A stretch of 20,007 nucleotides of DNA from a virus. The position numbers were made by a program, and so were the translations under genes. Location: IMG/VR virus record IMGVR_UViG_3300048908_000128, positions 1-20,007 of that record; one strand, 5' to 3'. The notes beneath the pieces were generated by a model. It was given only the letters and a program-made list of their open reading frames with translations, searched no databases and had not been told where the DNA came from. This document shows positions 312 to 20,007 of the stretch, piece after piece (the stretch's first letter is position 1; every line of letters starts with the position of its first letter).

Positions 312-668
312 GTGATCCTTTATCACTTCACCTGTGAGCACGCGGCCGCCGGCATCCTCGGCGACGGCGGGGTGATCGTGCCGCGGGTGCACCCGCTGCT
401 CGGCTACGGGGTCGTGTGGCTGAGTCTCGAGCCGGCGCCCACGGCGGCCGCCCTCGGCCTCGCATCCCGGCAGCTCGTCACGTGCGATCGCATGGCTGCC
501 CGGTTCGTCGTCGACGAGCCCGTCGACGCGGTGCCCTGGTACAGCGTGCGGGATCGGCTGCCCGGCCCGCTCGCGCGGCAGCTCACGATCGCGTTTCAGG
601 CAGCGCTCGGCACACGCCCGGGTGTGTGGTATCTCTCGAGGGTGCCGCAGCGCGGCCGCCTCGGGTGA
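312..668 (+). CDS. Hypothetical 118-aa protein and the only plus-strand gene. Its N-terminus (LYHFT...AAGILGDGGVIVP...VVWLS) is reminiscent of minimal ART-like/HYD1-type toxin domains. That similarity is unverified.
   Basis: GTG start. Third codon positions are almost all G/C in this frame and the composition looks like a real protein, whereas the antisense ORF 147..734 is an R/P-rich artefact. The stop TGA at 666-668 lies inside the left arm of the 663-736 hairpin. Confidence 0.75.
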   Translation: MILYHFTCEHAAAGILGDGGVIVPRVHPLLGYGVVWLSLEPAPTAAALGLASRQLVTCDRMAARFVVDEPVDAVPWYSVRDRLPGPLARQLTIAFQAALGTRPGVWYLSRVPQRGRLG

Positions 669-736
669 CGTCACCTGACAGCGGCACGGGCCAACCGGGG
701 GGTGCCGGCCCGTGCCGCTGTCAGGTGACGTCACCC
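663..736. terminator. 30-bp perfect inverted repeat (663-692 with 707-736, 14-nt loop) between the convergent genes 312..668(+) and 764..958(-). It is a likely bidirectional terminator, and each arm carries a GTGACGTCAC palindrome.
   Basis: The arms GGGTGACGTCACCTGACAGCGGCACGGGCC and GGCCCGTGCCGCTGTCAGGTGACGTCACCC are exact reverse complements. There is no U-tract on either side, as in I-shaped actinobacterial terminators. Confidence 0.6.
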
Positions 737-763
737 CGTCACGTGACGGGGTGACGTCACGTG
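734..763. promoter_or_regulatory. Palindrome pair: CCCCGTCACGTGACGGGG (734-751, 18 bp perfect) followed by GTGACGTCAC (751-760)
   Basis: Read directly. Both belong to the GTCAC/GTGAC palindrome family also seen at 3565-3627 and 11889-11965. Confidence 0.5.
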
Positions 764-958
764 CTATTCGGGCCCGGGTGCGTCGACCTGCAGCCGCAGC
801 TCGGCGTCGAATCCCTGCGCCCAGCTAATCCGGGTGCCGGGGGACAGGTAGACATGGGCGCCGGCGTGCTCGGCCTCGAGCTGGCAGGGGATGCCGGGCC
901 CGAGCCGCAGCACGGCGTCACACGTGGCGGTGTCGGCGGGTGCCGTGTCACGTGTCAT
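764..958 (-). CDS. Hypothetical 64-aa protein (MTRDTAPADTATCDAV...)
   Basis: The ATG at 958 forms an ATGA overlap with the stop of the upstream Lsr2-like gene. GC3 is high in this frame. It is the last gene before the 663-736 hairpin. Confidence 0.6.
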   Translation of the reverse strand: MTRDTAPADTATCDAVLRLGPGIPCQLEAEHAGAHVYLSPGTRISWAQGFDAELRLQVDAPGPE

Positions 959-1290
959 GCGTGCGTTTCGTGCCACAGGTCGACGACGTGCGCCGGCATC
1001 CGGCCGCGGGCCGATTCGGTCATGTGCCCCTCGGCGATCGCCCATTCGCGAATCTCGCGACGCTGTATGGCCTCGGGTGTCGACGCCCGTCGACGGGATC
1101 TCGTCGACGACGGCCGTGCCGGCGAGATCCGCCGGGCGGCGTCGAGATACGGGGCGAGCGCATCGCGTAGCTGCTGCTCGTTGTCGGGTGCGAGATCGAT
1201 CGCGTATGCCGTGCCGTCGAGCGCGAAATCGACCTGTCGCGCGTCGGGGGTGCCGTCGATATCGTCAGTGCGAACCGTGATAGTTGCCAT
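955..1290 (-). CDS. lsr2: Lsr2-like nucleoid-associated protein (xenogeneic-silencer family)
   Basis: The N-terminus TVRTDDIDGTPDARQVDFALDGTAYAIDLAPDNEQQLRDALAPYLDAARR matches the Lsr2 dimerisation domain pattern. A basic linker follows. The C-terminus IREWAIAEGHMTESARGRMPAHVVDLW matches the Lsr2 RGR DNA-binding motif. Confidence 0.85.
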   Translation of the reverse strand: MATITVRTDDIDGTPDARQVDFALDGTAYAIDLAPDNEQQLRDALAPYLDAARRISPARPSSTRSRRRASTPEAIQRREIREWAIAEGHMTESARGRMPAHVVDLWHETHA

Positions 1291-2248: not shown

Positions 2249-2818
2249 TCATCGGAAACGGGGCGATATGGGACGCCCGTTACCGGCGATCGTAGCGTCG
2301 TCGCCGTAGGGCGACGTGATTTTCGCGCCTTTGATCCCGTTGTGCGTCTGGCACAGGGGTTGTAAATTCCGCATGTCGTCAGTGCCGCCCAGTGCGCGCG
2401 GGATCACGTGATCGATCTGTGTCGCGCGGGTCGTGATGCCCTCGCGCCGGCATTGCCAACAGTGCCGCCCGTGCGTGCGATATGCCTGTTCGCATATCCG
2501 CTTACGGTAATTGCCGACCCAACAGGGCAGCGTGTCTAGGTGCGGCCGCTTGCAGCGGCTACAGTTTGGGACGGACCCGCCCGCCACGGTTGACACGATT
2601 GGGACGCCTGTTATACGTGGCGGGCGGGGCTGCAGCGAGGATTTCGGGTCGCCTCGAGATCTCGGGATGCCGGCAGCAGACATGGCGGGGCGACGCTCGC
2701 GCTGTGCTCGAGCGTCGCCCCTGTCCCCATGTGCGCCGTGCCGTGCATCGGTATCGACCATAGCGCCGATATATCGAATCGCCGCATCCTTTGGAAACGA
2801 AACGATGCAATGATGCAA
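2249..2818 (-). CDS. HNH endonuclease. The start is uncertain, and the real start is probably internal (ATG 2683, or GTG 2596/2587).
   Basis: The C-terminal domain is CSRC...CWQCRREG...IDHVIPRALGGTDDMRNLQPLCQTHNGIKG (HNH with CxxC pairs). The longest ORF starts at a TTG. Its first roughly 45 codons cover a lower-GC stretch and a 13-bp perfect hairpin. Confidence 0.8.
   Translation of the reverse strand: MHHCIVSFPKDAAIRYIGAMVDTDARHGAHGDRGDARAQRERRPAMSAAGIPRSRGDPKSSLQPRPPRITGVPIVSTVAGGSVPNCSRCKRPHLDTLPCWVGNYRKRICEQAYRTHGRHCWQCRREGITTRATQIDHVIPRALGGTDDMRNLQPLCQTHNGIKGAKITSPYGDDATIAGNGRPISPRFR
2687..2721. other. 13-bp perfect GC-rich hairpin (2687-2699 with 2709-2721, 9-nt loop) immediately upstream of the ATG at 2683
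   Basis: GGGGCGACGCTCG and CGAGCGTCGCCCC are exact reverse complements. No U-tract follows. Confidence 0.5.
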
Positions 2819-2850: not shown

Positions 2851-3129
2851 TCACCACACGCCGGCATCGGCCAGCCGGTTACGGGCGGTGCGTTTCGCGG
2901 CCCGCGCGACGTCGTACTCGGCGAGCACGTCGTCGAGCCCGCTGCAGCCGGCGGCCGCGGCGATCGCGACGATCGCGGCGAATGCCGGCGCATCCGTGCG
3001 CCGGATCTCGTCGAGCACGTCGGCGATCAGGTCGGCGGCATCCTGCATGTCATGCTCGGCCTGATACTCGGCATCCTCGAGCCTGTTGATCTCGGCCTGC
3101 GTCAGTGGCTCGACGTCGTCGCCGGTCAT
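2851..3129 (-). CDS. Hypothetical acidic helical protein, 92 aa
   Basis: The ATG at 3129 forms an ATGA overlap with the stop of the upstream gene. The sequence MTGDDVEPLTQAEINRLEDAEYQAEHDMQDAADLIADVLDEI... looks like a real protein. Confidence 0.65.
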   Translation of the reverse strand: MTGDDVEPLTQAEINRLEDAEYQAEHDMQDAADLIADVLDEIRRTDAPAFAAIVAIAAAAGCSGLDDVLAEYDVARAAKRTARNRLADAGVW

Positions 3130-3569
3130 CCTAGGATCGCTTTGATCTCGCGTCGCGGCATGACGAGCGCGCCGTGCTCGCCGAGCGGCTGCAGGCCGAA
3201 TTCGTCGCGGTGCCGCCGGATCGCGTGCACACTGATGCCCAGCGCCTCGGCGGCGATCTCGAGCGGCACGAAACCGGGCAGCGTGTCGACGAGCTGCGAG
3301 ATCGGCGGCCGCTGCTGCAGCATGCCGCTCGACGAGCGTTCGACGGCCGTCGACGGGGTCGGCACGGGCCCGCGGGCCGGCTGATCGGGTCGTTCGTAAT
3401 CGGCCGGGATCAGCCATGCCCCGTCGAGCTTCATCGCCCCCGGGATGCCGTCGGCTAGCCAGCGTTTCAGCGTCCGGTCACTGATCGGCCGGCCGGCTCG
3501 CGATCGCAGGTCAAGAAATCCGGCGAACGTGACGAGCTGTGCAGGGGTGTCATTAGGTGTATCTGTCAT
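3126..3569 (-). CDS. DNA-binding protein with two tandem excisionase/MerR-like winged-HTH domains, 147 aa
   Basis: N-terminal domain: VTFAGFLDLRSRAGRPISDRTLKRWLADGIPGAMKLDGAWLIP. C-terminal domain: FVPLEIAAEALGISVHAIRRHRDEFGLQPLGEHGALVMPRREIKAI. Both fit the excisionase-type HTH pattern. The ATG start is embedded in the GTCAC-repeat array. Confidence 0.75.
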   Translation of the reverse strand: MTDTPNDTPAQLVTFAGFLDLRSRAGRPISDRTLKRWLADGIPGAMKLDGAWLIPADYERPDQPARGPVPTPSTAVERSSSGMLQQRPPISQLVDTLPGFVPLEIAAEALGISVHAIRRHRDEFGLQPLGEHGALVMPRREIKAILG

Positions 3570-3627
3570 GTGACAACCCTACGTCACGTGACGTCACACT
3601 GTCACCCGTCGTCACGTGCCATGTCAC
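3565..3627. promoter_or_regulatory. Array of seven GTCAC/GTGAC pentamers, including the 14-bp perfect palindrome ACGTCACGTGACGT (3581-3594) and GTGACGTCAC (3588-3597). This is a candidate operator or binding-site cluster.
   Basis: Read directly. It fills the whole 32-nt gap between the stop of 3602..3805 and the start of the wHTH gene, and extends into both genes. Confidence 0.55.
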
Positions 3628-3805
3628 CCGCGGTCGGGTCGGGGGTCGCTATCAGCATCCAGCCGTGTTCCCATAGCGGGCCGTCTGTGAGGATCACGAG
3701 CCCGGGCCCGTATAGACGCTGCAGCGCCCGCACGAGATCTCGCATGCCGGCGGCCGGCATCGGGTATCTCAGCTTTGCGACGACGCGGGCGGGGTCGGTA
3801 ATCAC
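3602..3805 (-). CDS. Hypothetical 67-aa protein (start uncertain)
   Basis: GTG start with reasonable GC3. TACGAT (complement of 3812-3817) lies 6 nt upstream, consistent with a leaderless promoter. Confidence 0.5.
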   Translation of the reverse strand: MITDPARVVAKLRYPMPAAGMRDLVRALQRLYGPGLVILTDGPLWEHGWMLIATPDPTAGDMARDDG

Positions 3806-3811
3806 CCTCGG

Positions 3812-3817
3812 ATCGTA
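3812..3817 (-). promoter_or_regulatory. Candidate -10 hexamer TACGAT (TANNNT) for a leaderless transcript starting at the GTG at 3805
   Basis: There are 6 nt between the hexamer and the start codon, and no separate SD. Confidence 0.25.
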
Positions 3818-4300
3818 ACGTCGGGCGCCGGCGGCCGCTTATGTATACCGTCCCGTTGTGCATGCCGGGTAGCGGAGGGAGGGCAGAGGGCCGCTCCCCC
3901 CCCACAGGGGAGGGAGTGCACGCCGGTATAGCATCGGTCGGTATATCGGTATAGCCCCGGCAGGGCGAGCCTGCCGACGTCGGGATATGTGAGCGGCAGC
4001 CCCCTGATTAAAGAGGTGATAGCGACATAGACGCCCGTGCGGGTCGCGCTTCCGTCACTCGGCCCCTGCCGGCCGGTCAGCAATGCCGGCTCGAGGGGAG
4101 GGTTATCTGATCGCCCTCTAACGGTCAGTCACCCGGCCCCCGGGGCTACCCGCCCTAATGGGCGGGATCGTGGCCGGGCTTGTGTGAGCCAGTGTGAGTT
4201 TTTGCGAGTTGTTCTCTCGGCGATCCGTCGGCGTGTCGTCGCTTTCATCGCTCGGCGTATGTCTGTCGGGTCTGTTACGCTTACCCCTAGGTTTTCGTGC

Positions 4301-4338
4301 TGAAATCCAACCTAGGGCGGCCAATCGGCCGCCCTAGG
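4301..4338 (-). terminator. Strong hairpin CCTAGGGCGGCC-AATC-GGCCGCCCTAGG (4311-4338). It is a candidate terminator ending the long minus-strand structural operon.
   Basis: 12-bp perfect stem with a 4-nt loop. On the minus strand it is followed by TTGGATTTCA, and on the plus strand by TGTTTCC. Confidence 0.55.
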
Positions 4339-4511
4339 TGTTTCCGGCGGCGTGTCGACGAATCCAGATCTCGACGAGCCGGGCCCGCGGAAATCGACGT
4401 CACAGGATGCCCTGTGCCGCACGAAACCGGGTCGGGTGATAGTAGGACCGCTAAACGCCGGGGGACAGCGTCTAGCGGCCGCACAGGGCCGCTCACAGTG
4501 TGGGGCCGTTT

Positions 4512-5513: not shown

Positions 5514-6314
5514 TTACCGATTCACGACGAGATCGACGAGCACGGCGAGATCGATTCCGCTGATCGCGACGAGCAGCGACACGCCCGCCAGCAGCCAGCG
5601 CGATAGGTCACGGGTCGGCGGGGTCGGCGGGCCCGGCTCGAGCGCGTCGACGTCGTCGCGGATTGCGTGCGATAGCGCGTTCGTCGACGCCATGAAACCG
5701 TCTGCAGAAAACCGGATCTGATTGCCGGCGTCATCCCGCTCGAGGGTGCCGTCGGCATTCTGCGCGGCGATCGGCTGCGCCCAGACAGCATGCCGGAAAA
5801 ACGGCCAGTCGTCATGCCCGGGCGGCGGCGACGTCGTATCCCGGTAGAACTCAAAAATTGAATCTTTGATGAACTGTCGATCATTGCCCGAGAGTGGCAC
5901 GTCATCCTCCAAAACATAGAGCGTAAAGTCGACGGTCGGCGTTACCCATGCGGGCCCGATCCATAATGTCGTGTGAACATGGGCGCCGGTTCCCCAATCG
6001 TTACCATTCGCCGACGCGCCCGATGCGGCGATTCCCTGCCCTTGACTGATTCGCTGCCCGACGCTTACCCACACGCTCGCCAAATGCAGATACCGGACCG
6101 TATTGCCGTCGTCGAGTGCGAGTGTCAGATATCGACCGGTCGCCGCGCCATTCGTTGTTTTCAGGTCGACGACGACGCCGGCGGCCGCGGCGAGGATCGT
6201 CGTGCCGTATCCGCATGCATAATCTGTGCCCGGCTCGGACGACGGCGGTTTACGATCCTTATGATCCTGCCATGACGACGAGATCGGCGCGTCGACGGGT
6301 GCAATATAGGGCAC
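5514..6314 (-). CDS. Endolysin, M23 (LytM-type) metallopeptidase with a C-terminal transmembrane helix
   Basis: GTDYACGYGTTILAAAAGVVV, VRYLHLAS and GAHVHTTLW match the HxxxD / HxH M23 signature region. The C-terminus LLAGVSLLVAISGIDLAVLVDLVV is hydrophobic. GTG start with AAGGGGTGAG upstream. Confidence 0.8.
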   Translation of the reverse strand: MPYIAPVDAPISSSWQDHKDRKPPSSEPGTDYACGYGTTILAAAAGVVVDLKTTNGAATGRYLTLALDDGNTVRYLHLASVWVSVGQRISQGQGIAASGASANGNDWGTGAHVHTTLWIGPAWVTPTVDFTLYVLEDDVPLSGNDRQFIKDSIFEFYRDTTSPPPGHDDWPFFRHAVWAQPIAAQNADGTLERDDAGNQIRFSADGFMASTNALSHAIRDDVDALEPGPPTPPTRDLSRWLLAGVSLLVAISGIDLAVLVDLVVNR

Positions 6315-7382: not shown

Positions 7383-9311
7383 CTATCCCTCCGTTGTAAC
7401 GCCGATGAGATCGGACCAGCTCACGTCCGAATCAAATTCGTTCCATGACCATGTGTTATCCAGATCGACCCACGGGACCGACCCGCCGAGCCCGAGCCCG
7501 GGTGACAGGGTGAGGGCGAGCGACCATGCGCCGGCGTTTGCGCCGTCGGTCACGGCGTGCCGGTATTCGTAATGCCCGCCCTCTATGTAGCCGACGAGCC
7601 CCGGCGGCAGGGGTGCCCAATTGGGGATATTGTCGATTCGCAGCGGGTGCCCGATCCGCACCGTGCCGTCGAGCAGATCCAGTGTCGTTTTCGTTTCGCC
7701 GGCGTCGACGACCGCCTCGAAACCCTGATCCCATTCGACGCCCGACAGTCGCCATGCACTATCGCCGACCCGGGCCAGCAGCCGGGCCGCGACGTCGGCC
7801 GCGTCAGATTCGGCCTGTAGCTGCGTCGACAACGAAATCCCGCGGGTGCCGTACTCGGCCTCGAGCTGCGCGTCGACGACGAGATAATGCCGCTCAGTCG
7901 GGGCCGGTTTGCCCTGATCGTCGACGGTCTGCTCGAGCCATGTGACGTCGGCACGGGTGCCGATATCGGCGACCGATTGCACCCATCGCAGCGGGGATAG
8001 CAGCACGTTCGCCGCGTCGAGCACGATCGCGTCGGCCGCGGTTGACGCCGGGATCACCTGCACGAGCCCCGTGTCGGGATCTTGATACAGCACGAATAGC
8101 GCCGAGCGGTTGTCGGGATCTTCGAGCCAGTAATAGGGCCCGTGGGTCGCGTGCACGGCCGGCCATGCGACGGCGGCCGCCGATGCGGCCAGCTCGGCGA
8201 CGAGCCCGGCCGCCGGCTGCGCGTCGACGTCGCGATAGGTAACCGGGATCGTGGCGATCGTCGGGTCGATAATCGCGGTGACGTCGCCGCCGGCGAGGGT
8301 CAGTATCCGGTTCACCCGGTCGGCGAGCGGTTCCACCTGCCAGGGCTGATCGCCGATGCGATCGTTCTGCAGGTCGGCCGGGAATCCGCGGGCGGTCACG
8401 TCGGCGACGAGCGTGCCGCCCTCGAGCCCGACGTCGTAATGCGCCTCGAGATCGGTGATCCGGCCGGCGAATGCGACGACCGTGCGCACGATCTCGCCCG
8501 ATGGGGCGGTTACGGCCACGTCGTCGACGTTGCCGCCCCGATAGTCGGCCCACGTGCCCGGGGTGCCCGCCCACGTGCCCGGGATCTGCTGCCATGCCGG
8601 CGCGGTGATCGCGACCCGCACCCCGACCCACCGATCCGACGTCGACGGGAACAATTGCCATGACACCGTCTGCCAGCCGCCCGTGCCGACGATGTGCTGC
8701 ACGGGCCCGTCAACCGACGACGCACCCGCCGGCGAGAAGAATGCGAGGGCCTGCAGCGTGCACACGGCCGACAACGGCGCCCACACGGCGACCGTGATTG
8801 GCCACGGCAGCCCGAGATCGGCGTCGGTATGGGGTATGTGATCCCACGCGGCCGGATTTTGCGTGTCGATCGCGGCCGGCGCGACGACGACGGCACCCTC
8901 GGCCGCGGTGTCGGTAATCGACAGGGCGAGAGACTGCGCGCCGGTCGACGCCCGCGCGGCCGTGACGGTCGCGGCCGCGTTCTGCGCGATCACGTTCGCC
9001 GGTTTCGAGCCGACCGCGGTCGCCTCGAAACCCCCGTCTGTGATCGTCGGCAGGCTCGGGTCGATATGTTCCATGCCGGCGGCCCGGATCTCGAGCGCCC
9101 GGCCGGCGGCGAGCTGCGCGATCAGGTCATGCCCGCCCCGCTGCGCGATCTGCAGCGACGCACTATCGGCGTCGGGCTGATCGACAACCGTCTGCCGCCC
9201 CCAGTCGATCCCGAGTCCCATCATGACGACCAGATCGCCGGCGTGAAAGCTCGTCGAGCTATCGGCGACGGGCACCCCGTCGACGAGCACCGTGACCGCG
9301 GCCGCACTCAC
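7383..9311 (-). CDS. Minor tail protein (Dit/Tal-position protein), 642 aa
   Basis: It lies immediately downstream of the tape measure, with a GTGA overlap. Large beta-rich protein. It contains the in-frame repeat PGTWAGT/PGTWADY. Confidence 0.65.
   Translation of the reverse strand: MSAAAVTVLVDGVPVADSSTSFHAGDLVVMMGLGIDWGRQTVVDQPDADSASLQIAQRGGHDLIAQLAAGRALEIRAAGMEHIDPSLPTITDGGFEATAVGSKPANVIAQNAAATVTAARASTGAQSLALSITDTAAEGAVVVAPAAIDTQNPAAWDHIPHTDADLGLPWPITVAVWAPLSAVCTLQALAFFSPAGASSVDGPVQHIVGTGGWQTVSWQLFPSTSDRWVGVRVAITAPAWQQIPGTWAGTPGTWADYRGGNVDDVAVTAPSGEIVRTVVAFAGRITDLEAHYDVGLEGGTLVADVTARGFPADLQNDRIGDQPWQVEPLADRVNRILTLAGGDVTAIIDPTIATIPVTYRDVDAQPAAGLVAELAASAAAVAWPAVHATHGPYYWLEDPDNRSALFVLYQDPDTGLVQVIPASTAADAIVLDAANVLLSPLRWVQSVADIGTRADVTWLEQTVDDQGKPAPTERHYLVVDAQLEAEYGTRGISLSTQLQAESDAADVAARLLARVGDSAWRLSGVEWDQGFEAVVDAGETKTTLDLLDGTVRIGHPLRIDNIPNWAPLPPGLVGYIEGGHYEYRHAVTDGANAGAWSLALTLSPGLGLGGSVPWVDLDNTWSWNEFDSDVSWSDLIGVTTEG
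8548..8583 (-). repeat. 15-bp exact direct repeat GCCCACGTGCCCGGG at 8548-8562 and 8569-8583 (21-nt period, in frame)
   Basis: Read directly. It encodes the 7-aa repeat PGTWAGT/PGTWADY in the minor tail protein. Confidence 0.8.
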
Positions 9312-11431
9312 GGGTAGCTCACCTGCCCGCCGAGAATCACGCCACGCTCACGCCGGGCGAGCCCCTGCAGCTCGGCCCGGATCGCGCGGGCGATCGCGTC
9401 GCCGCCCCCGAATGGCGCCTGCACCGTGATCTGAATAGGTGACGGCGCGGCGATCCTCGGCGCGGCCGCGCTGCGATACCCGGCGGCCGCATAGACGGCC
9501 GGCGACAGGGTGCCGGCGGCGAATGTCGACGACGTCGACGACACGGCGAACGTCGATTTTCCGCCCCCGGTCAGATCCGATAGCCATTTCGGCGGTTGCG
9601 GCCACTGAATTTTCGACAACCATTTGACGACGCCGGCGATCGCGTCGGCGATCGCGTTAAAGATAGGGGCGAGCATGCCGAGCGCCCCCGAAATCAATTT
9701 CGACGTGATCGTGAGCAGCCCGCCGAGCAGCGGGCCGGCGAGCTGCAGCAGCGGGGCGATCAGATTAAGAATCGGGCCGAGCAGCGCGGCGATAAGCGCG
9801 ATCAATTGTGCAATGGGCGGCAGAATGGGAATAACAGCCTTAATGATCTGCACAAATGCCGGGATTAGTGGCGTAATTGCCGTGACCAATAGATTTACGA
9901 TAATCTTCGCCAATTGCACGACAATGGGCAATAGTGGCTGAATGGCGCCAATGACCAATAGCACCACTGTCGCGAGGGGCGGCAGCAATTGGGTAATGAG
10001 ATCGGTAATTACGGGCAATAGCGGCATAAATGCGTCGACCAATTGCGTGACAATGGGCACGAGCATTGTTATTACGGTCGCGACGATCGGCAGCACGGCC
10101 TGCGCGAGCTGCGCGATCAGCGGCACGAGCGCCTGCAGCACTGTCGAGAGGGCGCCGGCGAAAACGGCGATCAGCGGGGCGGCCGCTTCGACGACGCTCG
10201 ACAGGGCGGTCGTGATCGCGCCGAGCGCGGTCGACAGCACGGGCAGCAGCGGGGCGAGCGCTTTCAGCGCCTGTTGCATGACGCCGCCGAAAACAGCCTG
10301 CAGCTCGGGCGACGTCGCGACGAGCCCGGCGATCGCGGCGATCACGATGCCGATCGGCCCGGACAGCCCGCCCAGCAGCTCGCCGATCAGCGGGATACCT
10401 TTAAGCGCGCCTGTCGACATGGCAGCGAACGCGCCGGTGATCGTCGCGAGGGCCGGCGCGAGATTGGAGATCCCCGCGGTGAGCTGATCGACGTTCACCC
10501 CTTTGAGCTTGCCGAGCACGGCGTCGAGAATGCCGCCGATCCCGCCGAGCCCGCCGGCGAACGCGCCCGTAAATTTCGACACGAGCCCGGATATCAACGG
10601 CTCGAGGGTGCGCAGGATATCGGCGATCTGATTCGCCCACGTGACAGCCATGCCCCCGCCGGATTTCGACACAAATGGCTCGGCGAGGGCCGACCCGATA
10701 TCCCGCATCGCCCCTTTGATCCGGTCGGTCGCGCCGGCCCATGTCTGTTTGACGTTGTCGGCGGCGTGCGCGAATCGTGTTTCCATGCCGGCGGCCAGCG
10801 CGTCGAGCGCCGTGCCGGCATCCAGCGATCCCTTACTGATCGCATCTTTGATCTGCGCGCCGGTCATGCCCATCTGCGAGCCGATCAGCGACGCCGCATC
10901 GATCCCGCGCTGCGCGAATTGCATGAGATCCTGACCGGTGATTTTCCCGGCCGCCGAGATCTGCGACATGATGAGCGAAATCTCTTTGATCTGCTGCGCC
11001 GACCCGCCGGTCGCCGCGACGGCATCCTGAATCGCGCCGAGATACGGGATCACTTTGCTCGACGCGATCCCGAATCCGAGCATCTGCTGCGTCGCTTCGA
11101 TAAACGCCTGTTTCGGAAACGGCGATTTCTTGCTAAACGCGGTGATCTGATCCATCATTGCCGCGGCCGCATCCGCCGACCCGAGAATCGTTTTAAACGC
11201 GGCCGTGGCGGTCTGATTCAATTGGTTGTATGCGACGCCTGATTTAAACACGCTCGCGACGAATATGCCGCCGGCGGTCGCGGCCGCGGTCCATTTCGTT
11301 GCGATCCCGGTCATGACGGCGTTCGCGCCGGCGCCGAATTTGCCGAGCGCGCTATCGGACGACCCTAGTGCTTTCGCGAGATCCGAATTATTCCCGAGAA
11401 TGTTGACGACGAGATTCGCCGGCCTGCCCAT
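9308..11431 (-). CDS. Tape measure protein, 707 aa
   Basis: Long Ala/Gly/Leu/Ile-rich helical protein with repetitive hydrophobic PL(L/I)P segments, placed directly after the chaperone frameshift pair. Confidence 0.9.
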   Translation of the reverse strand: MGRPANLVVNILGNNSDLAKALGSSDSALGKFGAGANAVMTGIATKWTAAATAGGIFVASVFKSGVAYNQLNQTATAAFKTILGSADAAAAMMDQITAFSKKSPFPKQAFIEATQQMLGFGIASSKVIPYLGAIQDAVAATGGSAQQIKEISLIMSQISAAGKITGQDLMQFAQRGIDAASLIGSQMGMTGAQIKDAISKGSLDAGTALDALAAGMETRFAHAADNVKQTWAGATDRIKGAMRDIGSALAEPFVSKSGGGMAVTWANQIADILRTLEPLISGLVSKFTGAFAGGLGGIGGILDAVLGKLKGVNVDQLTAGISNLAPALATITGAFAAMSTGALKGIPLIGELLGGLSGPIGIVIAAIAGLVATSPELQAVFGGVMQQALKALAPLLPVLSTALGAITTALSSVVEAAAPLIAVFAGALSTVLQALVPLIAQLAQAVLPIVATVITMLVPIVTQLVDAFMPLLPVITDLITQLLPPLATVVLLVIGAIQPLLPIVVQLAKIIVNLLVTAITPLIPAFVQIIKAVIPILPPIAQLIALIAALLGPILNLIAPLLQLAGPLLGGLLTITSKLISGALGMLAPIFNAIADAIAGVVKWLSKIQWPQPPKWLSDLTGGGKSTFAVSSTSSTFAAGTLSPAVYAAAGYRSAAAPRIAAPSPIQITVQAPFGGGDAIARAIRAELQGLARRERGVILGGQVSYP

Positions 11432-11435
11432 ATGG

Positions 11436-12058
11436 TCACCCCCCCTCGGCTGTATGTGTGCGATCGATCGCCGTCATCATTGCCTGCAGCCGATCCAGCG
11501 GCAGGTTTTCGATCACGTCGACGGTTACGTGATAGGCGAGCCCGATAACGGCGAGATCGGCGAGCCGGTCGCGGTGTGCGTCGGCGAGGGCCCGCCGGCG
11601 CCAATCACTTTTGGGCGGCGTCGGGCCAGCTCGAGCACGAGCGTCGCGAGATCGTCGAATGGGATCGCGAATGCCTGATCGATCGACAACGGGTGATCGC
11701 CGTGCAGCCGGGACGCCCAGACCATAAACACGAGCTGGCCGGCCTGCGTGCGGGTCAGCTCGTCGAGGGTGATGCCGGCGGACAGCTCGAATTGCATGAT
11801 CTGCCGGCTCGTCAGCGCTGCGCGCAGCTCGTCGGCCAGCGTGTCGACGTCGACCGGGTCGACGACGTCGTCGCCCGGCTCGTCGGGGGTGACAGCGTCA
11901 CGTGACGGGACGCTGTCACGGGACGCTGTCACGTTCTCGGGTGCCGTCACGGGCCATGTCACGTCGTCGAGCCCGGGCAGCGGGTCGCCGTAGCCGGCCG
12001 GCTCGTCGACGACGTCGTCGTCGGGCCCGGTCACGTCAGGGGTGATGAATGTGTTCAT
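11436..12058 (-). CDS. Tail assembly chaperone -1 frameshift product (GT-like), about 207 aa. The frame shifts at 11609-11615.
   Basis: After the slip the -1 frame reads SDWRRRALADAHRDRLADLAVIGLAYHVTVDVIENLPLDRLQAMMTAIDRTHTAEGG and stops at TGA 11436-11438, 4 nt before the tape-measure ATG. Confidence 0.65.
11525..12058 (-). CDS. Tail assembly chaperone (G-like, zero-frame product), 177 aa, with an acidic low-complexity N-terminal half
   Basis: Located between the tail genes and the tape measure. The ATG at 12058 forms an ATGA overlap. It contains the slippery heptamer CCCAAAA. Confidence 0.7.
   Translation of the reverse strand: MNTFITPDVTGPDDDVVDEPAGYGDPLPGLDDVTWPVTAPENVTASRDSVPSRDAVTPDEPGDDVVDPVDVDTLADELRAALTSRQIMQFELSAGITLDELTRTQAGQLVFMVWASRLHGDHPLSIDQAFAIPFDDLATLVLELARRRPKVIGAGGPSPTHTATGSPISPLSGSPIT
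11609..11615 (-). promoter_or_regulatory. Programmed -1 ribosomal frameshift slippery heptamer C_CCA_AAA
   Basis: The minus strand reads cgC CCA AAA Gtg in the chaperone zero frame, a perfect X_XXY_YYZ pattern. Confidence 0.65.
11889..11965. repeat. Nucleotide-level repeat cluster inside the chaperone gene. It comprises the inverted copy GTGACAGCGTC (11889-11899), the palindrome CGTCACGTGACG (11896-11907), an exact 13-nt tandem repeat GGGACGCTGTCAC x2 (11907-11932) and further GTCAC pentamers.
   Basis: Read directly. The 13-nt period is not a multiple of 3, so the two copies are translated in different frames (VTASRDSVPSRDAVT). Confidence 0.8.
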
Positions 12059-12489
12059 TTCGTTGCCGGCGTCGCCGCCCCAATCCGATCGATGATTTTC
12101 TGCAGGTCGTCGACGTAGAACTCGAGCCATATCTGCTCGGATCGCTGCGCGGCGTCGACGATGAAAAACGACCCGCGAAACGACCCGCCCCGCCACCCTT
12201 TGCGGGGATTGGGGCGGCCCGGCCAGCCGTAATGGTTATTGCCGGCGTAGGGCACGGCCGCGCTGCCGGCCCGCACGACCGCCCGACCTACCTGCCGCGT
12301 GCCGCGCACGGTGCCCTGCAGGTTCCCCGTGTCGCCGACCGGGGCGAGCCCCCGGGCGACGTCGGCGACGAATGCCGACACGCGCGCGTTTGCCGTTCTC
12401 AGGTCGGCCGTGTCGAGCTGCGCGGCTGAGAGTGCTGATCTCAGCTCGCGCAGCCCGACCACGTAGTAGCCGGCGTTCTGTGTCGACAT
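12055..12489 (-). CDS. HK97 gp10-family head-tail/neck protein, 144 aa
   Basis: ARGLAPVGDTGNLQGTVRGT...VRAGSAAVPYAGNNHYGWP fits the gp10-family pattern (P..TG.L..S...YA...E/H.G). Confidence 0.65.
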   Translation of the reverse strand: MSTQNAGYYVVGLRELRSALSAAQLDTADLRTANARVSAFVADVARGLAPVGDTGNLQGTVRGTRQVGRAVVRAGSAAVPYAGNNHYGWPGRPNPRKGWRGGSFRGSFFIVDAAQRSEQIWLEFYVDDLQKIIDRIGAATPATK

Positions 12490-12508: not shown

Positions 12509-13000
12509 TTATTCGCCAGTCGCCCCGGATTTGCTCGGCGCGGCGGCCGCGGCCAGCGGTGCCGCCCCCCAGGTGCCGAAATCCGGTTCGGATGCGCCGG
12601 CCGGGCCGCGCACGCTCCAGTCGAAATCGCGCGTGATCCGCACTTTGACGTCGCCGCCGAGCCCGAGAAACTTGACGTAGACTTCGCCGGTGATCGTCGG
12701 CGCGGTCGTGTTGTCGTTCGGGGTGAACGTGAATTCCTGCCACGTGCCCCGGTTCGTATAGGACCATTCCTGCAGCGACGGGGATGCGTCGAAATCCTGA
12801 ATCGCGGTGCCGGTCATGTGCCACGGGCCCGGGGTCGTTTCGCCGCCGATCGTGTCACCTGACAGCACGTAGGCCTGATCCTCGGAATCGCCGTCCTGTT
12901 GCTCGACGATCAGGTTTGTCGTCTGCGCCTCGGCCGACGTCGGCGTCAGCGTCGGGCCAAACGTCAGCGTGCCCCTCAGCAGTCTCGAATCGTTAACCAT
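12509..13000 (-). CDS. Putative major tail protein, 163 aa
   Basis: Assigned by position upstream of the chaperone and tape measure. Beta-rich sequence, strong SD (GAGAGGGG) and a disordered Ala-rich C-terminus. No specific motif was recognised. Confidence 0.5.
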   Translation of the reverse strand: MVNDSRLLRGTLTFGPTLTPTSAEAQTTNLIVEQQDGDSEDQAYVLSGDTIGGETTPGPWHMTGTAIQDFDASPSLQEWSYTNRGTWQEFTFTPNDNTTAPTITGEVYVKFLGLGGDVKVRITRDFDWSVRGPAGASEPDFGTWGAAPLAAAAAPSKSGATGE

Positions 13001-13713: not shown

Positions 13714-14979
13714 TCACTTACTCGACTTGACGGCGTCGCGGGCCGCGGCGACGAGATCCTCGGCGCCGGCGACCGGGGCGGGCAGGGCGAGCACGCTGAA
13801 CGTGTCGGGTGCCGTGTTCAGGGTCGCCTCGAAACCGGCGTAGCCGACGAGCTGGCCGAGCACGTCGGGCTCGTCGACGGCGAGAAAACCGTCGAGATCT
13901 TCGTAATACTCGACGAGCGCCCCGCGGCCGATGATGCCCGTTCCCGGCGGGAAATACGGATCGACAACGGCCTTGAAACCGCCGATCGTGCCGCCGATCA
14001 CGCCGGGCTCGAGCCCGGGCCAGCTCGGCACCCCGTTGGAGCTGAGCTGCCCGCCGAGCTCGGCCCACACGTCGACCGACAGCCAGAACGTGTCCGGGAA
14101 TCCGAGCGGCTTGCCGGCCTGCAGCGGGGTCGCGGCCGCGTCGAACAGCACTTTGCGCACCGTGGCCGGGTTCCAATCGGCGACGGGTACGCTCGCGTTG
14201 TTCGTCAGCGACGCGAGAAACGCCGTCACGGCATCTTCGTCGGATTCCTGCGCGTAGATATTCGCGAAATCCTCGGCGACGATCTGCATGATCCCGGGCT
14301 GCGACCACTTGATATCCTGCCGGGAAATGTTCAGGTGCCCGGCGAGGGTCGTCGCGGCCACGGGCAGCTTGCCGAGCAGCAATTTCTGCGACGCGGTGAG
14401 ATCCTTCTCCTGCGCCTGTTTGCCGACGGCGACATGCTGGGTGACGACGGGCCGGTCGAATGCCATCGCCGTCAGCGGCCGGCGGGCGACCGACTGCACG
14501 AATGGCCGGTTTGCGTCGATCAGGTTGATGACCGGCTGCACGATCGGGCGGGGGATGATGCCGGGGTTGTCGGCGGTCGTCTGATGCGCGGTCGCGCGTT
14601 CGATCAGCTCGAGCGCTTCCCGGTCGCCGCGCATGGCACGGCCGGCGGCGACGAGATAGTGCCCGACGGTCGGGAATGCCTCGCGCATGATCGCGTCGGG
14701 GTCGGCCGGCCGGTCGGCGACGACGACCCGCTCGACACGGGTCGGCTGTCCGCCGAAACGCGATCGCAGTGTCGCGACGCGGCCGCGCTGCTCTTCGATG
14801 CCGGCGTGATATTCGATCGACGCCTGCAGCTCGGCGGCGTGCGTGTTGTCGCGTTCGATCAGCGCGTTTTCGTCGGCGGTCAGATCGCGGTTTTCCGCGG
14901 CCGCACGCTCGAGCACGGCGTCGACGCCGTCGATCAGTTCGTCGTATTCCGACGTGAGACGGTCAAGATAAACGCCCAT
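13714..14979 (-). CDS. Major capsid protein, HK97 fold, with an N-terminal coiled-coil (delta/scaffold-like) segment, 421 aa
   Basis: It follows the prohead protease. ATG with GGGAGGG SD. The helical N-terminus of about 100 aa is followed by a body typical of HK97-family capsid proteins. Confidence 0.85.
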   Translation of the reverse strand: MGVYLDRLTSEYDELIDGVDAVLERAAAENRDLTADENALIERDNTHAAELQASIEYHAGIEEQRGRVATLRSRFGGQPTRVERVVVADRPADPDAIMREAFPTVGHYLVAAGRAMRGDREALELIERATAHQTTADNPGIIPRPIVQPVINLIDANRPFVQSVARRPLTAMAFDRPVVTQHVAVGKQAQEKDLTASQKLLLGKLPVAATTLAGHLNISRQDIKWSQPGIMQIVAEDFANIYAQESDEDAVTAFLASLTNNASVPVADWNPATVRKVLFDAAATPLQAGKPLGFPDTFWLSVDVWAELGGQLSSNGVPSWPGLEPGVIGGTIGGFKAVVDPYFPPGTGIIGRGALVEYYEDLDGFLAVDEPDVLGQLVGYAGFEATLNTAPDTFSVLALPAPVAGAEDLVAAARDAVKSSK

Positions 14980-15017: not shown

Positions 15018-15094
15018 GGGTGTCTGGTCCCACTCGCCCCGGGGTGTCGGCTCTCAGGCCGGGTGTCCGGTGACGGTCGCCAGGGTGTCGGCTC
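15018..15094. repeat. Four copies of GGGTGTC (minus strand GACACCC) at 15018, 15042, 15061 and 15083. Two of them extend to the exact 12-mer GGGTGTCGGCTC.
   Basis: Read directly in the 132-nt protease-capsid intergenic region. Spacings are 24, 19 and 22 nt. Confidence 0.8.
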
Positions 15095-15111: not shown

Positions 15112-15684
15112 TTAGCGTGCTGTGCGCAGCGCGTCTAGTCTCGCCCGGGCGGCATCCAGCAGCGGGGTTGCCGGCGGGGTAAGCATTTCGTGATCGCGGG
15201 CGACGAGCACGCCGGCGCCGGCGTATTGCGGCGACCGGGTCGCGGCGACGTGATTCAGGCCGGCCTGCATCCTGATCGTGACGTCGCGGCCGCCCCGTGT
15301 TTCCCGGCGCGACTTGTATGCGCGGGCGCCGACCGACCAACCGGTCAGCTCGCCCGAGCGTGCTTCTTCGGCTTGTGGGTGCGACCGGTTCAACCGGAAT
15401 GCCGGATACAGGCCGTCGTCGAATTCCTCGAGCGCGACGCATCGGCCGAGATACCGGTCGCCGTCGTCGCCGGCGTGCCCGAGCATGAGATTAATCCACA
15501 AGCCCCCTTTGGACACGTCGCGGGCGAACGCGCCCCGCTCGAATTCCTCGAAATAGAACGTTTCGCCGTCGTCGCTGACGGCCGTTTCGACGCCGTAGGG
15601 CACGGCGAGCCCGCGCACGGTCCAACCGTCGCCGATCGGCTCGAGCGGCACGGGTAGGGCACGGGTGATAAACAGCTCAGACAT
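15112..15684 (-). CDS. Prohead maturation protease, HK97 (S78) family, 190 aa
   Basis: Contains LMLGHAGD (His), GWSVGA (Ser) and LAVPYGV... elements and lies between the portal and capsid genes. The ATG at 15684 with a GGAG SD is preferred over the TTG at 15699. Confidence 0.8.
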   Translation of the reverse strand: MSELFITRALPVPLEPIGDGWTVRGLAVPYGVETAVSDDGETFYFEEFERGAFARDVSKGGLWINLMLGHAGDDGDRYLGRCVALEEFDDGLYPAFRLNRSHPQAEEARSGELTGWSVGARAYKSRRETRGGRDVTIRMQAGLNHVAATRSPQYAGAGVLVARDHEMLTPPATPLLDAARARLDALRTAR

Positions 15685-16963
15685 TCGCGGTCGCTCCAAT
15701 CGCCTGCAGGTTGGTCTGTGTGATGATCTGCTGTGCCGCGGCGACGACGTCGTCGGCGGTCTGATCGGTTGTCTCGGGCCGGCGTGCGGTCTGCGCCGGC
15801 GTCGGCAGCGGCGGATACCCGAGCTTTGCCCGGATCTCGTCGACCGTGAACACGCCCGCGCCGGCGTACCCGGTCAGGATCTCCATCGTCGATTTCGCGT
15901 CGGCCCGCATCCTCGAGTCGTAATCCCAGACGACCGACGTGCCGCCCGGCATAAGCCATTTCGTCATCGCCTCAGTGAGCGGCCGCATCCAGCGGTCGGC
16001 ACTGTCGCGCACGAAATCGATATCGCCCGTTTCGACGTTCTGATATGTCATCGTCGGGCCGTCGAGACCCAATTTCCACGGCGGCACGCCCACGGCGTTC
16101 GCCGTCATGTGCGCGTTCCATTTGCGCGCGTCGACGAGCTGCGCCTGTTCCGCGTTGCCCACGATCGGCAGCAGCGTCGTACCCGACGGCAGCACGACCG
16201 GCTCGCGGGTGAGCACGATATCCCGCCATTTCTGTTTCAGCTCGTCGGCCTGTTCCTGTTTCACGACGCCGCCGGCGGCGATCACGGCCGGCGGCAGCGC
16301 GCCGGCGGCGAACGTGTCGCGGCTGTACGATTCGGCGGCGAGATCGCCGGCGAGCGAATCGGCGTACTGCTGCAGCACCCCACGCCCGAGTAGCTGCCCC
16401 GATCGGGCGCCGAATGACACGTGAAACACTTCATCGGGGCTGAGAGTGATCCCGCCGATCACCCATGCATACGTCCCGTCGGGGTCGACCTGCAGCCACA
16501 CCTGATCGACGGGCAGCGGCACGAGCCAGCCGGGCCGGCCCGTGCGCCAGTCCAGATCCCCCTTTAGGGCAACATGGTTGCCGTAGAGTATCCCGTCCTC
16601 GGCGGCCGCCCAGCGATACCCCCACAGCGTCGACAACGGGTCAGGGTCGGTCACGATCGACGGCTGATCGGGCAGCGGAATCGCGATCCCGAGATCCCGG
16701 TCGAACCGGCGCGCATACCATTCCGTCGACGCGGCCGCATTCGCCAGCAGCGCGACCGCCCGCCCGAATGGCGGGTAGCCGAGCGCGTCGGATTCCGTCG
16801 CCGGCTGCACGGTCGGAATCAGCGGCGGGTCGGTCGTCGTCAGCGTCAGCAACGCCTGCCGGGTGAGCCGGCCCGGCAGCGCCGGCCGGGCGAGCTGCTG
16901 CAGGGCGGCCGACCCGCGCAGCCGGTTACGGGCATAGGACAGTGCTACATCGCGACTCGCCAC
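15677..16963 (-). CDS. Portal protein, 428 aa
   Basis: Size and position directly after TerL. GTG start preceded by GAGG. Confidence 0.8.
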   Translation of the reverse strand: MASRDVALSYARNRLRGSAALQQLARPALPGRLTRQALLTLTTTDPPLIPTVQPATESDALGYPPFGRAVALLANAAASTEWYARRFDRDLGIAIPLPDQPSIVTDPDPLSTLWGYRWAAAEDGILYGNHVALKGDLDWRTGRPGWLVPLPVDQVWLQVDPDGTYAWVIGGITLSPDEVFHVSFGARSGQLLGRGVLQQYADSLAGDLAAESYSRDTFAAGALPPAVIAAGGVVKQEQADELKQKWRDIVLTREPVVLPSGTTLLPIVGNAEQAQLVDARKWNAHMTANAVGVPPWKLGLDGPTMTYQNVETGDIDFVRDSADRWMRPLTEAMTKWLMPGGTSVVWDYDSRMRADAKSTMEILTGYAGAGVFTVDEIRAKLGYPPLPTPAQTARRPETTDQTADDVVAAAQQIITQTNLQAIGATANV

Positions 16964-19984: not shown

Positions 19985-20007
19985 CTGATCGGGTAAAAAC
20001 GGGCCCG
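19985..20007. repeat. Terminal direct repeat, copy 2 (identical to 1-23)
   Basis: Exact 23-nt identity with the window start. Confidence 0.9.

Follow-up and report, generated by a model that had tools for sequence, protein, structure and literature searches.

A pentamer array at the start of a tandem winged-helix gene, a candidate operator in a small siphovirus genome

Cox of phage P2 and Apl of coliphage 186, small excisionase (Xis)-like proteins with a winged helix–turn–helix (wHTH) fold, coat arrays in which short repeats follow one another at intervals of about one helical turn; they have several arrays per genome and act both as repressors at lysis–lysogeny promoters and as excisionases at attP. 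TraN of plasmid pIP501 binds DNA as a monomer, is similar in structure to MerR regulators and excisionases, and represses the main operon promoter as well as its own, P_traNO (PMC10877727). BldC of Streptomyces multimerises on variable numbers of direct repeats in operators of very different lengths (PMC5859096), and Gp36 of mycobacteriophage D29, a MerR/Xis-like wHTH protein, binds direct repeats of the pentamer GCGGC, forms oligomers and acts as a repressor of both early and late genes of the phage (PMC12266134). Here we describe an array of GTCAC/GTGAC pentamers that overlaps the start of a gene for a tandem wHTH protein in the IMG/VR virus record IMGVR_UViG_3300048908_000128, analysed over its whole length of 20,007 nucleotides (the window). 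The array is most likely a cis element of this known kind, previously unnoticed in the phage group concerned, and we consider it reasonably probable that the tandem wHTH protein of the phage uses it as an operator with multiple sites.

An earlier note on this DNA had counted seven pentamers in 63 bp at the start of the wHTH gene, and this count is borne out: GTGAC at 3570 and 3588, and GTCAC at 3583, 3593, 3601, 3611 and 3623. These seven exact copies fall within 58 bp (3570–3627), and GTCAT at 3565–3569 is an eighth copy with one mismatch. On the coding (minus) strand the order is GTGAC at 3627, 3615 and 3605, GTGAC-GTCAC-GTGAC at 3597–3583, GTCAC at 3574 and ATGAC at 3569, the last of which includes the wHTH start codon ('cat' at 3567–3569, inside GTCATGTGAC, as the note had observed). 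The sequence of 3560–3630 is tatctGTCATGTGACaaccctacGTCACGTGACGTCACactGTCACccgtcGTCACgtgccatGTCACcc, and the coding-strand reading of the array is GGGTGACATGGCACGTGACGACGGGTGACAGTGTGACGTCACGTGACGTAGGGTTGTCACATGACAG. The 14-bp perfect palindrome described earlier, ACGTCACGTGACGT, is also present, at 3581–3594. Start-to-start spacings are 12, 10, 8, 5, 5, 13 and 5 bp, with direct and inverted orientations mixed, and the array has the short-repeat build expected of Xis/MerR-like operators, with roughly helical spacing and room for several domains. It fills the 32-nt gap (3570–3601) between the wHTH open reading frame (ORF) and the ORF upstream, as had been claimed; what had been missed is that it reaches past the gap, so that three pentamers extend into ORF 3602–3805 upstream, at its 3′ end, and encode its last 8 codons (TAGDMARDDG*).

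The array is non-random, far beyond chance. The window holds 70 copies of GTCAC/GTGAC, against 44.7 ± 6.2 in shuffled sequences, and its densest 63-bp span has 7 copies, where 1000 dinucleotide shuffles typically have 2–3 and never more than 5. Clusters of at least five copies occur three times in the genome, at 665–760 (array 1), 3570–3627 (array 2, the array at the wHTH gene) and 11889–11962 (array 3), and more than one cluster of at least four copies was seen in none of the 1000 shuffles. The 48 copies outside the three arrays match the background level; the whole pentamer excess of the genome sits in the arrays. Two 10-bp palindromes made of these pentamers, GTGACGTCAC and GTCACGTGAC, occur four and three times in the genome (expected 0.02 each).

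Two other origins for array 2 were tried and rejected: an antisense ORF at 3570–3818 (+) is ruled out by codon-position GC analysis, and a CRP/GlxR-type host site (TGTGA-N6-TCACA) by the spacing, on sequence reading. A literature search with three of the palindromes returned only eukaryotic papers, on the cyclic-AMP response element (CRE), the E-box and p53, and nothing on phages.

The earlier note had tied array 2 to arrays at 663–763 and 11889–11965, and this link is borne out by the pentamer excess and by a block common to arrays 2 and 3 on the minus strand (GTGACATGGCNCGTGACGNC, 20/22 positions). Both of these arrays open with GTGACATGGCNCGTGACG and continue with direct GTGAC repeats, a palindrome and an inverted copy; judged on sequence they are related (paralogous) composite elements, not merely pentamer-rich DNA. 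Array 3 lies wholly in coding DNA, which had been overlooked: it is part of a strongly coding segment for the acidic, disordered-looking N-terminal 60 residues of a tail-assembly-chaperone-like protein, whose gene begins with an ATGA overlap. Its pentamers translate as V-T, R-D, S-R and V-T in different frames. A peptide repeat is ruled out as their cause, and it is therefore the DNA sequence, not the peptide, that appears to be under selection.

Array 1 occupies a 95-bp gap separating convergent genes, with one or two plus-strand ORFs running towards it. It has four 10-bp palindromes (GTGACGTCAC at 665, 725 and 751, GTCACGTGAC at 738), three of them at 13-bp intervals and adjoining a perfect hairpin with 30-bp arms (663–692 / 707–736), the base of which is again GGTGACGTCACC; array 1 is probably a bidirectional terminator. 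Only two start codons of the genome are embedded in the motif, that of the wHTH gene at 3569 and that of ORF 764–958 at 958 (ATGACACGTGAC), which overlaps the Lsr2 stop codon as ATGA; no start coincides with array 1 or array 3.

The 147-residue product of the gene that begins in array 2 matches the PHROG family phrog_22141 'DNA binding protein' (3.7e-19) and, weakly, Pfam HTH_17 at residues 106–145 (E = 5.5e-5), with a second HTH at 29–56. An AlphaFold2 model built with 43 homologues has two winged-helix domains of β-α-α-β-β topology, at 12–55 and 100–146 (predicted local distance difference test score, pLDDT, above 90), with a disordered segment at 60–89, in keeping with the 'double wHTH' label first given to the protein. 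A Foldseek search of the PDB with this model returned the RacA–DNA complex, TraN of pIP501, the MerR-family protein NmlR on DNA, the BldC–DNA complex and Xis of mycobacteriophage Pukovnik, at single-domain probabilities of 0.95–1.0; the E-values are weak (0.09–0.6) because each wHTH domain has only about 48 residues. A PDB sequence search with the protein gave nothing useful. On the model, the protein is a double wHTH of the Xis/MerR-like, not the Rep-like, fold class.

Family searches find a DNA-binding match for this protein, for Lsr2 and for an HNH protein, and for no other ORF of the genome; Lsr2 is a binder of AT-rich DNA. The wHTH protein is also the only one of the genome's proteins with a homologue in all nine of the first loci compared, and the only one in common with the 51-kb phage L009. 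Some of its relatives (P0078, P0142, P0156, P0157 and P0177, from an exhaustive profile search) have 4–7 copies of the domain in chains of 290–1200 residues, and such poly-wHTH proteins might read long repeat arrays.

Homologues of the wHTH protein sit in Microbacterium cluster EE phages, Agromyces prophages and metagenomic phages. A tblastn search of GenBank phages gave 139 records, 138 of which are Microbacterium phages of about 17 kb (cluster EE, Orlajensenviridae) with proteins 34–39% identical. A profile search of a 5.8-billion-protein collection gave 47 clusters, many from contigs of about 17 kb, and the exhaustive profile search, over 1.84 billion representatives (clusters at 50% identity), gave about 234 at E ≤ 1e-10, mostly two-domain proteins of 130–170 residues. 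In IMG/VR, a single-protein scan found no relatives and a profile scan found 13 loci.

The earlier note had proposed comparing homologous intergenic regions in related phages. Contigs for several of the matches, the 13 IMG/VR loci and two Agromyces genomes were fetched, and over 25 homologue-bearing loci we counted a fixed degenerate pentamer, G[TA]CA[CT], in 80-bp windows, taking as the wHTH region up to 300 nt upstream of the N-domain recognition helix. In 16 of the 25 loci, from about nine independent lineages, the window with the most copies lies where the wHTH gene begins, and no window elsewhere in the locus matches its count. For L005 and L008, the peak density falls where the small operon containing the wHTH gene begins. 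This comparison indicates that the linkage of gene and array is conserved across phage lineages.

The motif varies in dialect between these loci, whereas the layout is kept. In L003, whose protein is 45% identical, TGTCAT/GGACATGTCC repeats span the 60 nt before the start and the first codons, and a 24-bp palindrome built from the same units lies 800 nt downstream. The cluster EE phages Naby and Nobel, with the GACATGTC dialect, have 5–7 GACATG/CATGTC units interspersed with GTCAC and TGACA directly upstream of the gene. In L006, three copies of ATGACAC span the start; L138, of the GTCAC dialect, has a stretch of about 150 bp with four tandem CGTCAC plus GACAT and GTGAC units; and L129 has a mixture of TTGACATGTCAT, GTCACGTGAC and TAGACATGTCT. 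The palindrome GTGACGTCAC occurs twice directly upstream of the wHTH homologue in both L004 and L009. In L004, the closest relative overall (terminase 50% identical), GTGACGTCACATGACGTCAC lies 20 nt ahead of the start, and in L009, an otherwise unrelated phage, GTGACGTCAC-c-GTGAC-ga-TGACA-cg-GTGACGTCAC stands right before the ribosome-binding site. The annotated N terminus of Nobel gp21 (…VSLDMSMSVSLDMSMS…; …VSLDMSMSVSLDMSMSTSHV…) is the GACATG array in translation; the deposited gp21 start (L002 15092–15238) is about 49 codons too early, the homologous start being the ATG at 15091.

Copies of the motif are also dispersed through the genomes of relatives. L004 has 14 copies of TGACGTCA and 20.5 kb of L009 have 11 (expected 0.15–0.18), and EE genomes have 6–8 copies of GACATGTC (expected 0.15). 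The L009 sites are composite and co-oriented, (TGACA/GTCAC) x2–3 followed by GGTGACGTCACCC, in intergenic gaps past stop codons, and in L004 GGGGGTGACGTCA(C/G)GTGAC spans several stop/start junctions. Naby and Nobel share their site places: before the terminase, in the terminase–portal gap, before the major tail gene, in the chaperone–tape-measure gap (where the site adjoins a GC-rich hairpin) and before lysin/gp16. Within the 3′ end of the L004 portal gene (L004:960–1085), four tandem units, GGTGTCGTCACCTGACGTCACC, form a second array in a coding low-complexity tail; with array 3, this would make a clear case of regulatory repeats placed within protein-coding DNA, in low-complexity tails. The published survey of Microbacterium phages gives repeated motifs for clusters EC, EF, EG and EI and none for EE (PMC7302621), and the cluster EE motif appears not to have been described before.

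On the coding strand, array 2 contains GTGACA-N18-TAGGGT-N6-ATG, in which the A of the ATG is 7 nt past a −10-like hexamer of the form TANNNT, a −10-to-ATG geometry like that of leaderless promoters in Actinobacteria. L003 and L138 repeat this TANNNT-N6/7-ATGACA layout at the start of their homologous gene, with TAGTAT and TATGCT, respectively, as the hexamer; the null rate is 0.2–3.5% per start codon. In L005 the TAGGGT layout is at the first gene of the wHTH operon. The EE phages have TTGACA-N18-TAGACA within the array and a leader with a Shine–Dalgarno sequence. Array 2 overlaps a probable leaderless promoter.

From these features we infer that the wHTH protein binds the arrays, that array 2 includes its promoter, and the sign of the regulation. 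Each Xis/MerR-like domain would read one pentamer of the G-T-C-A-C type, and the two domains of a molecule might occupy adjacent pentamers, as in GTGACGTCACGTGAC. A flexible linker of about 30 residues together with protein–protein contacts would let several molecules coat direct and inverted pentamers, and two small reading heads so tethered could explain the tolerance of mixed orientation and irregular spacing. The sites of array 2 would cover the −35-like GTGACA, the spacer, the flank of the −10-like TAGGGT, the +1 position and the first codons; occupancy would therefore block RNA polymerase and shut off or tune synthesis of the protein, that is, give negative autoregulation. Sites at 663–760, 917–951 and 11889–11962 would let the same protein act by the convergent terminator and inside the tail-gene block, and the tandem wHTH protein may be a general transcription regulator or architectural factor of the phage. 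The earlier note had offered an autoregulatory operator or an initiator-binding iteron set; comparative linkage and the promoter-like layout favour the first, and the second fits poorly.

Several observations weigh against an operator for the wHTH protein. The HTH_17 match scores 23.8 bits, under the Pfam cut-off of 27. A generic sigma-70 scan, which requires an Escherichia coli-like consensus, found no promoter at array 2, and with the wHTH gene only 32 nt behind a co-directional ORF a promoter there is not required. No promoter is obvious at arrays 1 and 3, for which 'operator' may be too narrow a term. Two of the loci compared, L007 and L135, have no obvious array near the wHTH gene, and an alignment of nine homologues gave no clean rule relating recognition helix to motif dialect. 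In the reverse direction, a search of IMG/VR for GTGACGTCAC-N(1–30)-GTGACGTCAC found at least 119 contigs, with no wHTH homologue in the stretches fetched, and the ORFs neighbouring the paired palindromes form no common protein family. GTGACGTCAC alone is therefore no marker of the tandem-wHTH system, and what counts as evidence is that loci with the gene have the array, not that loci with the array have the gene. The palindrome appears to be a convergent operator-type sequence used by many unrelated phage systems. The contigs with paired copies (L010–L128) range from 37 to 75% G+C and favour start-to-start spacings of 11–12, 21–22 and 30–36 bp.

Among the described systems, TraN (Protein Data Bank entries 4pm3 / 6G1T) is like the wHTH protein in having two Xis/MerR-like halves in one chain, and it is among the top Foldseek matches to the model over its full length. 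However, its halves are compactly packed and it has one defined 34-bp site, whereas here there is a disordered linker and arrays of seven to eight 5-bp cores at several loci. The two proteins have no recognisable homology in sequence, and TraN is encoded by a conjugative Enterococcus plasmid of the Firmicutes, not by a phage of Actinobacteria. BldC (6ama, 6amk), also a Foldseek match, is a minimal MerR/Xis-like wHTH protein that is cooperative on short repeats, but it has a single domain, its molecules line up head-to-tail along direct AATT-N4-C repeats, and it bends AT-rich DNA, whereas the motif here is GC-rich, occurs in both orientations and faces two domains tethered in one chain. D29 Gp36 is related to the L5 excisionase position, much as the wHTH family adjoins an integrase in temperate relatives (PMC12266134); it differs in being a single domain with one mapped site, two repeats of another pentamer 13 bp apart, and an autoregulatory array on its own start codon has not been reported. 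Cox and Apl are single-domain proteins of temperate enterobacterial phages that use direct repeats, whereas the phage here has no integrase.

RacA of Bacillus subtilis (5i44), the best single-domain Foldseek match, is a MerR-like wHTH protein that reads GC-rich palindromes scattered on the chromosome, and its ram consensus, TGACGCCGGCGTCA, has a TGACG half-site in common with the array motif. RacA differs in being an architectural, kinetochore-like protein with a coiled coil, not a transcription factor, and it has no phage context. The dispersed GACATGTC and TGACGTCA sites of relatives resemble repeated actinophage motifs of the SAS/ESAS type (clusters K and EF), the inverted repeats of clusters O and EG and the EC 18-mers, which number 5–12 per genome and mostly precede starts (PMC7302621). 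By contrast with SAS/ESAS, an asymmetric motif at the ribosome-binding position of many starts, the motif here is palindromic and touches two starts only, although some relatives (L004 and the EE phages) have start-embedded copies; it forms dense arrays, one of them in coding DNA, and a candidate binder can be named.

An unlikely alternative to the operator is that the array is an iteron set and the tandem wHTH protein an origin-binding initiator that acts in cis and possibly also represses its own gene. Initiators acting next to their own gene are familiar from lambda O and plasmid Rep proteins, and iteron origins with Rep proteins of the WH1–WH2 type resemble this locus in combining a two-winged-helix protein with direct repeats, an inverted-repeat operator at its own gene and autoregulation; array 2 too combines direct and inverted repeats. 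No replication gene can be recognised in the 17–20-kb phages, all relatives examined have just one non-structural protein in common, the wHTH protein, and the first ~20 nt of its gene are AT-richer (3548–3568, ~40% GC). Cumulative GC skew peaks near 3500–4500, but skew is uninformative where genes are nearly all on one strand. Iteron systems differ from this one in fold class, domain size, repeat length, phasing and copy number per replicon. The protein has no Rep family match in Pfam or PHROGs and its domains, of about 45 residues, are Xis/MerR-like; the cores are 5 bp long, irregularly spaced (by 5–18 bp) and of mixed orientation, not phased 17–22-bp direct repeats at one locus; and there are three arrays in one 20-kb genome, while many of the TGACGTCA sites of L004 and L009 are at structural-operon junctions. 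Next to the arrays there is no clear, extended AT-rich unwinding element (DnaA boxes were not searched for), and the lower-GC, non-coding DNA at 3870–4310, with its TATACCG direct repeats, is a better candidate origin.

It is also rather unlikely that the arrays bind some other factor, a host regulator or a small phage protein, and that the wHTH gene lies near them because the region is a regulatory hot-spot rather than through autoregulation. Such a factor would accord with the spread of paired GTGACGTCAC in viral contigs that lack the wHTH family and with the want of clear covariation between helix and motif, and several small flanking ORFs (3602–3805, 764–958 and 2851–3129) have no assigned function. 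Those ORFs, however, have no homologues in the other loci and no DNA-binding signature, and the array accompanies the wHTH gene even in lineages with no further non-structural protein in common, the 51-kb L009 among them. A host regulator would leave unexplained the shifts of dialect within one host genus, from GACATGTC in the EE phages to the GTCAC-rich L138 and L129.

Less probable again is an element that works at the level of RNA or translation, such as a start-associated sequence, a processing site or an attenuator hairpin in the mRNA. Start codons do lie repeatedly in the motif: those of the wHTH gene and ORF 764–958 here, and in Naby and Nobel those of the terminase, major tail and lysin genes, which fall within GACATG. 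The L004 motif spans a Shine–Dalgarno-like GGGGG, TGACGTCAC and a GTG start, in L004 and L009 the elements point in the direction of transcription, and start-associated repeats of unassigned role are known from other actinophages (PMC7302621). Arrays 1 and 3 fold well as RNA (z about −10 to −11 and −2.8, respectively), but they are not at start codons, and the fold of array 2 is no better than that of shuffled sequences (z −0.75). No Rfam family matches array 2 or any other part of the genome, there is no complementarity argument, the palindromic cores are typical of duplex recognition, and the conserved partner has a DNA-binding fold.

Finally, that the wHTH protein is an excisionase and the arrays its architectural, arm-type binding sites is very improbable, for although the fold is Xis-like and the temperate relatives L007 and L142 carry the gene beside a tyrosine integrase or an ORF of similar size, family searches find no integrase or recombinase among the ORFs of the complete genome, cluster EE phages are lytic and have no integrase (PMC7302621), and the arrays are dispersed, not grouped at attP.

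If array 2 is an operator for the wHTH protein and nothing more, with the protein only an autorepressor, the result is an ordinary but useful annotation. A broader idea, which we put forward as a doubtful one, is that the protein and its G[T/A]CA[C/T] arrays serve the smallest siphoviruses of Actinobacteria (Orlajensenviridae-like, 17–20 kb) as their single master control module, combining leaderless autoregulation, an early/late programme through late-gene junction sites, including coding ones, and origin recognition. Few tailed phages of Actinobacteria are smaller than those of the cluster EE type, which are widely isolated, and a specific protein–site pair can now be named for them that is conserved across Microbacterium phages, Agromyces prophages and metagenomic relatives. 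Cultivable members, for example Nobel or Naby on Microbacterium foliorum, make the idea directly testable.

Table 1. Features of the window in and around the arrays and in the rest of the genome.
Feature	Position	Strand	Basis or remark
wHTH gene, 147 aa, tandem Xis/MerR-like (HTH_17-type), presumed array binder	3126..3569	-	Pfam, PHROG, AlphaFold2, Foldseek
Array 2	3565..3627	-	sequence reading and shuffle statistics
Palindromic core of array 2	3581..3597	.	ACGTCACGTGACGT (3581-3594, perfect 14-bp palindrome) overlapping GTGACGTCAC (3588-3597)
-35-like hexamer GTGACA	3600..3605	-	predicted from sequence reading; 18-nt spacer to TAGGGT
-10-like hexamer TAGGGT (TANNNT)	3576..3581	-	predicted; 6 nt ahead of ATG; predicts leaderless transcript from A3569
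Upstream 67-aa ORF, function not assigned	3602..3805	-	ends at 3602; no Pfam or PHROG match
Array 1	663..760	.	8 pentamer copies (665-760); gap between convergent genes
GTGAC pair (917/947)	917..958	-	first codons of 64-aa ORF 764-958; repeat family D18
Array 3	11889..11962	-	7 pentamers inside chaperone-like gene 11525-12058
Terminase	16978-18558	-	family search
Portal	15677-16963	-	family search
Scaffold/protease-like ORF	15112-15699	-	PHROG 2263 'major head protein'
Major capsid	13714-14979	-	PHROG 2263 'major head protein'
Major tail	12509-13000	-	
144-aa tail gene	12055-12489	-	
Chaperone-like gene	11525-12058	-	
Tape measure	9308-11431	-	tail proteins come next
M23 lysin	5514-6314	-	small membrane-type ORFs come next
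Terminator-like perfect hairpin	4309-4336	-	CCTAGGGCGGCC-gatt-GGCCGCCCTAGG then TTGGATTTC; closes lysis genes
92-aa ORF	2851-3129	-	
HNH	2249-2818	-	
phrog_5931 protein, 299 aa	1330-2229	-	PDB sequence search: nothing useful
Lsr2	955-1290	-	
64-aa ORF	764-958	-	
Plus-strand ORFs	31-315 and 312-668	+	only 312-668 confirmed by codon-position GC

The phage is known solely through metagenomics: the window is a whole Joint Genome Institute (JGI) metagenome contig with a siphovirus genome of 68% G+C. Its first and last 23 bases (1–23 and 19985–20007) are identical, CTGATCGGGTAAAAACGGGCCCG, and by this terminal match the genome is complete, at about 19,984 bp, and circular or terminally redundant; terminator-like hairpins with T-runs lie on both sides of the junction. 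From codon-position GC and family searches, almost every gene lies on the minus strand (Table 1), and no tRNA was found in the complete genome. Compared as a whole at the nucleotide level with GenBank phages and PLSDB plasmids, the stretch has no match. The phrog_5931 gene is not carried by cluster EE relatives, and the capsid and the protease/scaffold-like part, separate ORFs here, are a single fused gene in those relatives.

Beyond the hairpin that closes the lysis genes come about 440 bp of lower-GC non-coding DNA (3870–4310) and then small ORFs. This region has three direct TATACCG repeats (about 3925–3960) and a CTCCCC/GGGGGG hairpin, and is a candidate early-promoter or origin region.

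The gene position directly ahead of an integrase is usual for an excisionase. In the metagenomic contig L007 (10001–11403) the wHTH homologue is immediately upstream of a tyrosine integrase (Pfam Phage_integrase), and on an Agromyces chromosome (L142:5950–7346) it is upstream of a 294-residue ORF that matches the L007 integrase in position and length. L008 (1–5900) has a cluster-EE-like genome on a 23-kb contig with host-type genes (UvrD-like helicases, NUDIX and APH) and no integrase in the part fetched; it may be an unusual prophage or an assembly chimera. In the window itself, a lone GTGAC at 11435–11439 lies between a Shine–Dalgarno-like G run (GAGGGGGGG) and the tape-measure start (GGGGGGGTGACCATATG), an arrangement that resembles the GGGGGTGACGTCAC-GTG start junctions of L004.

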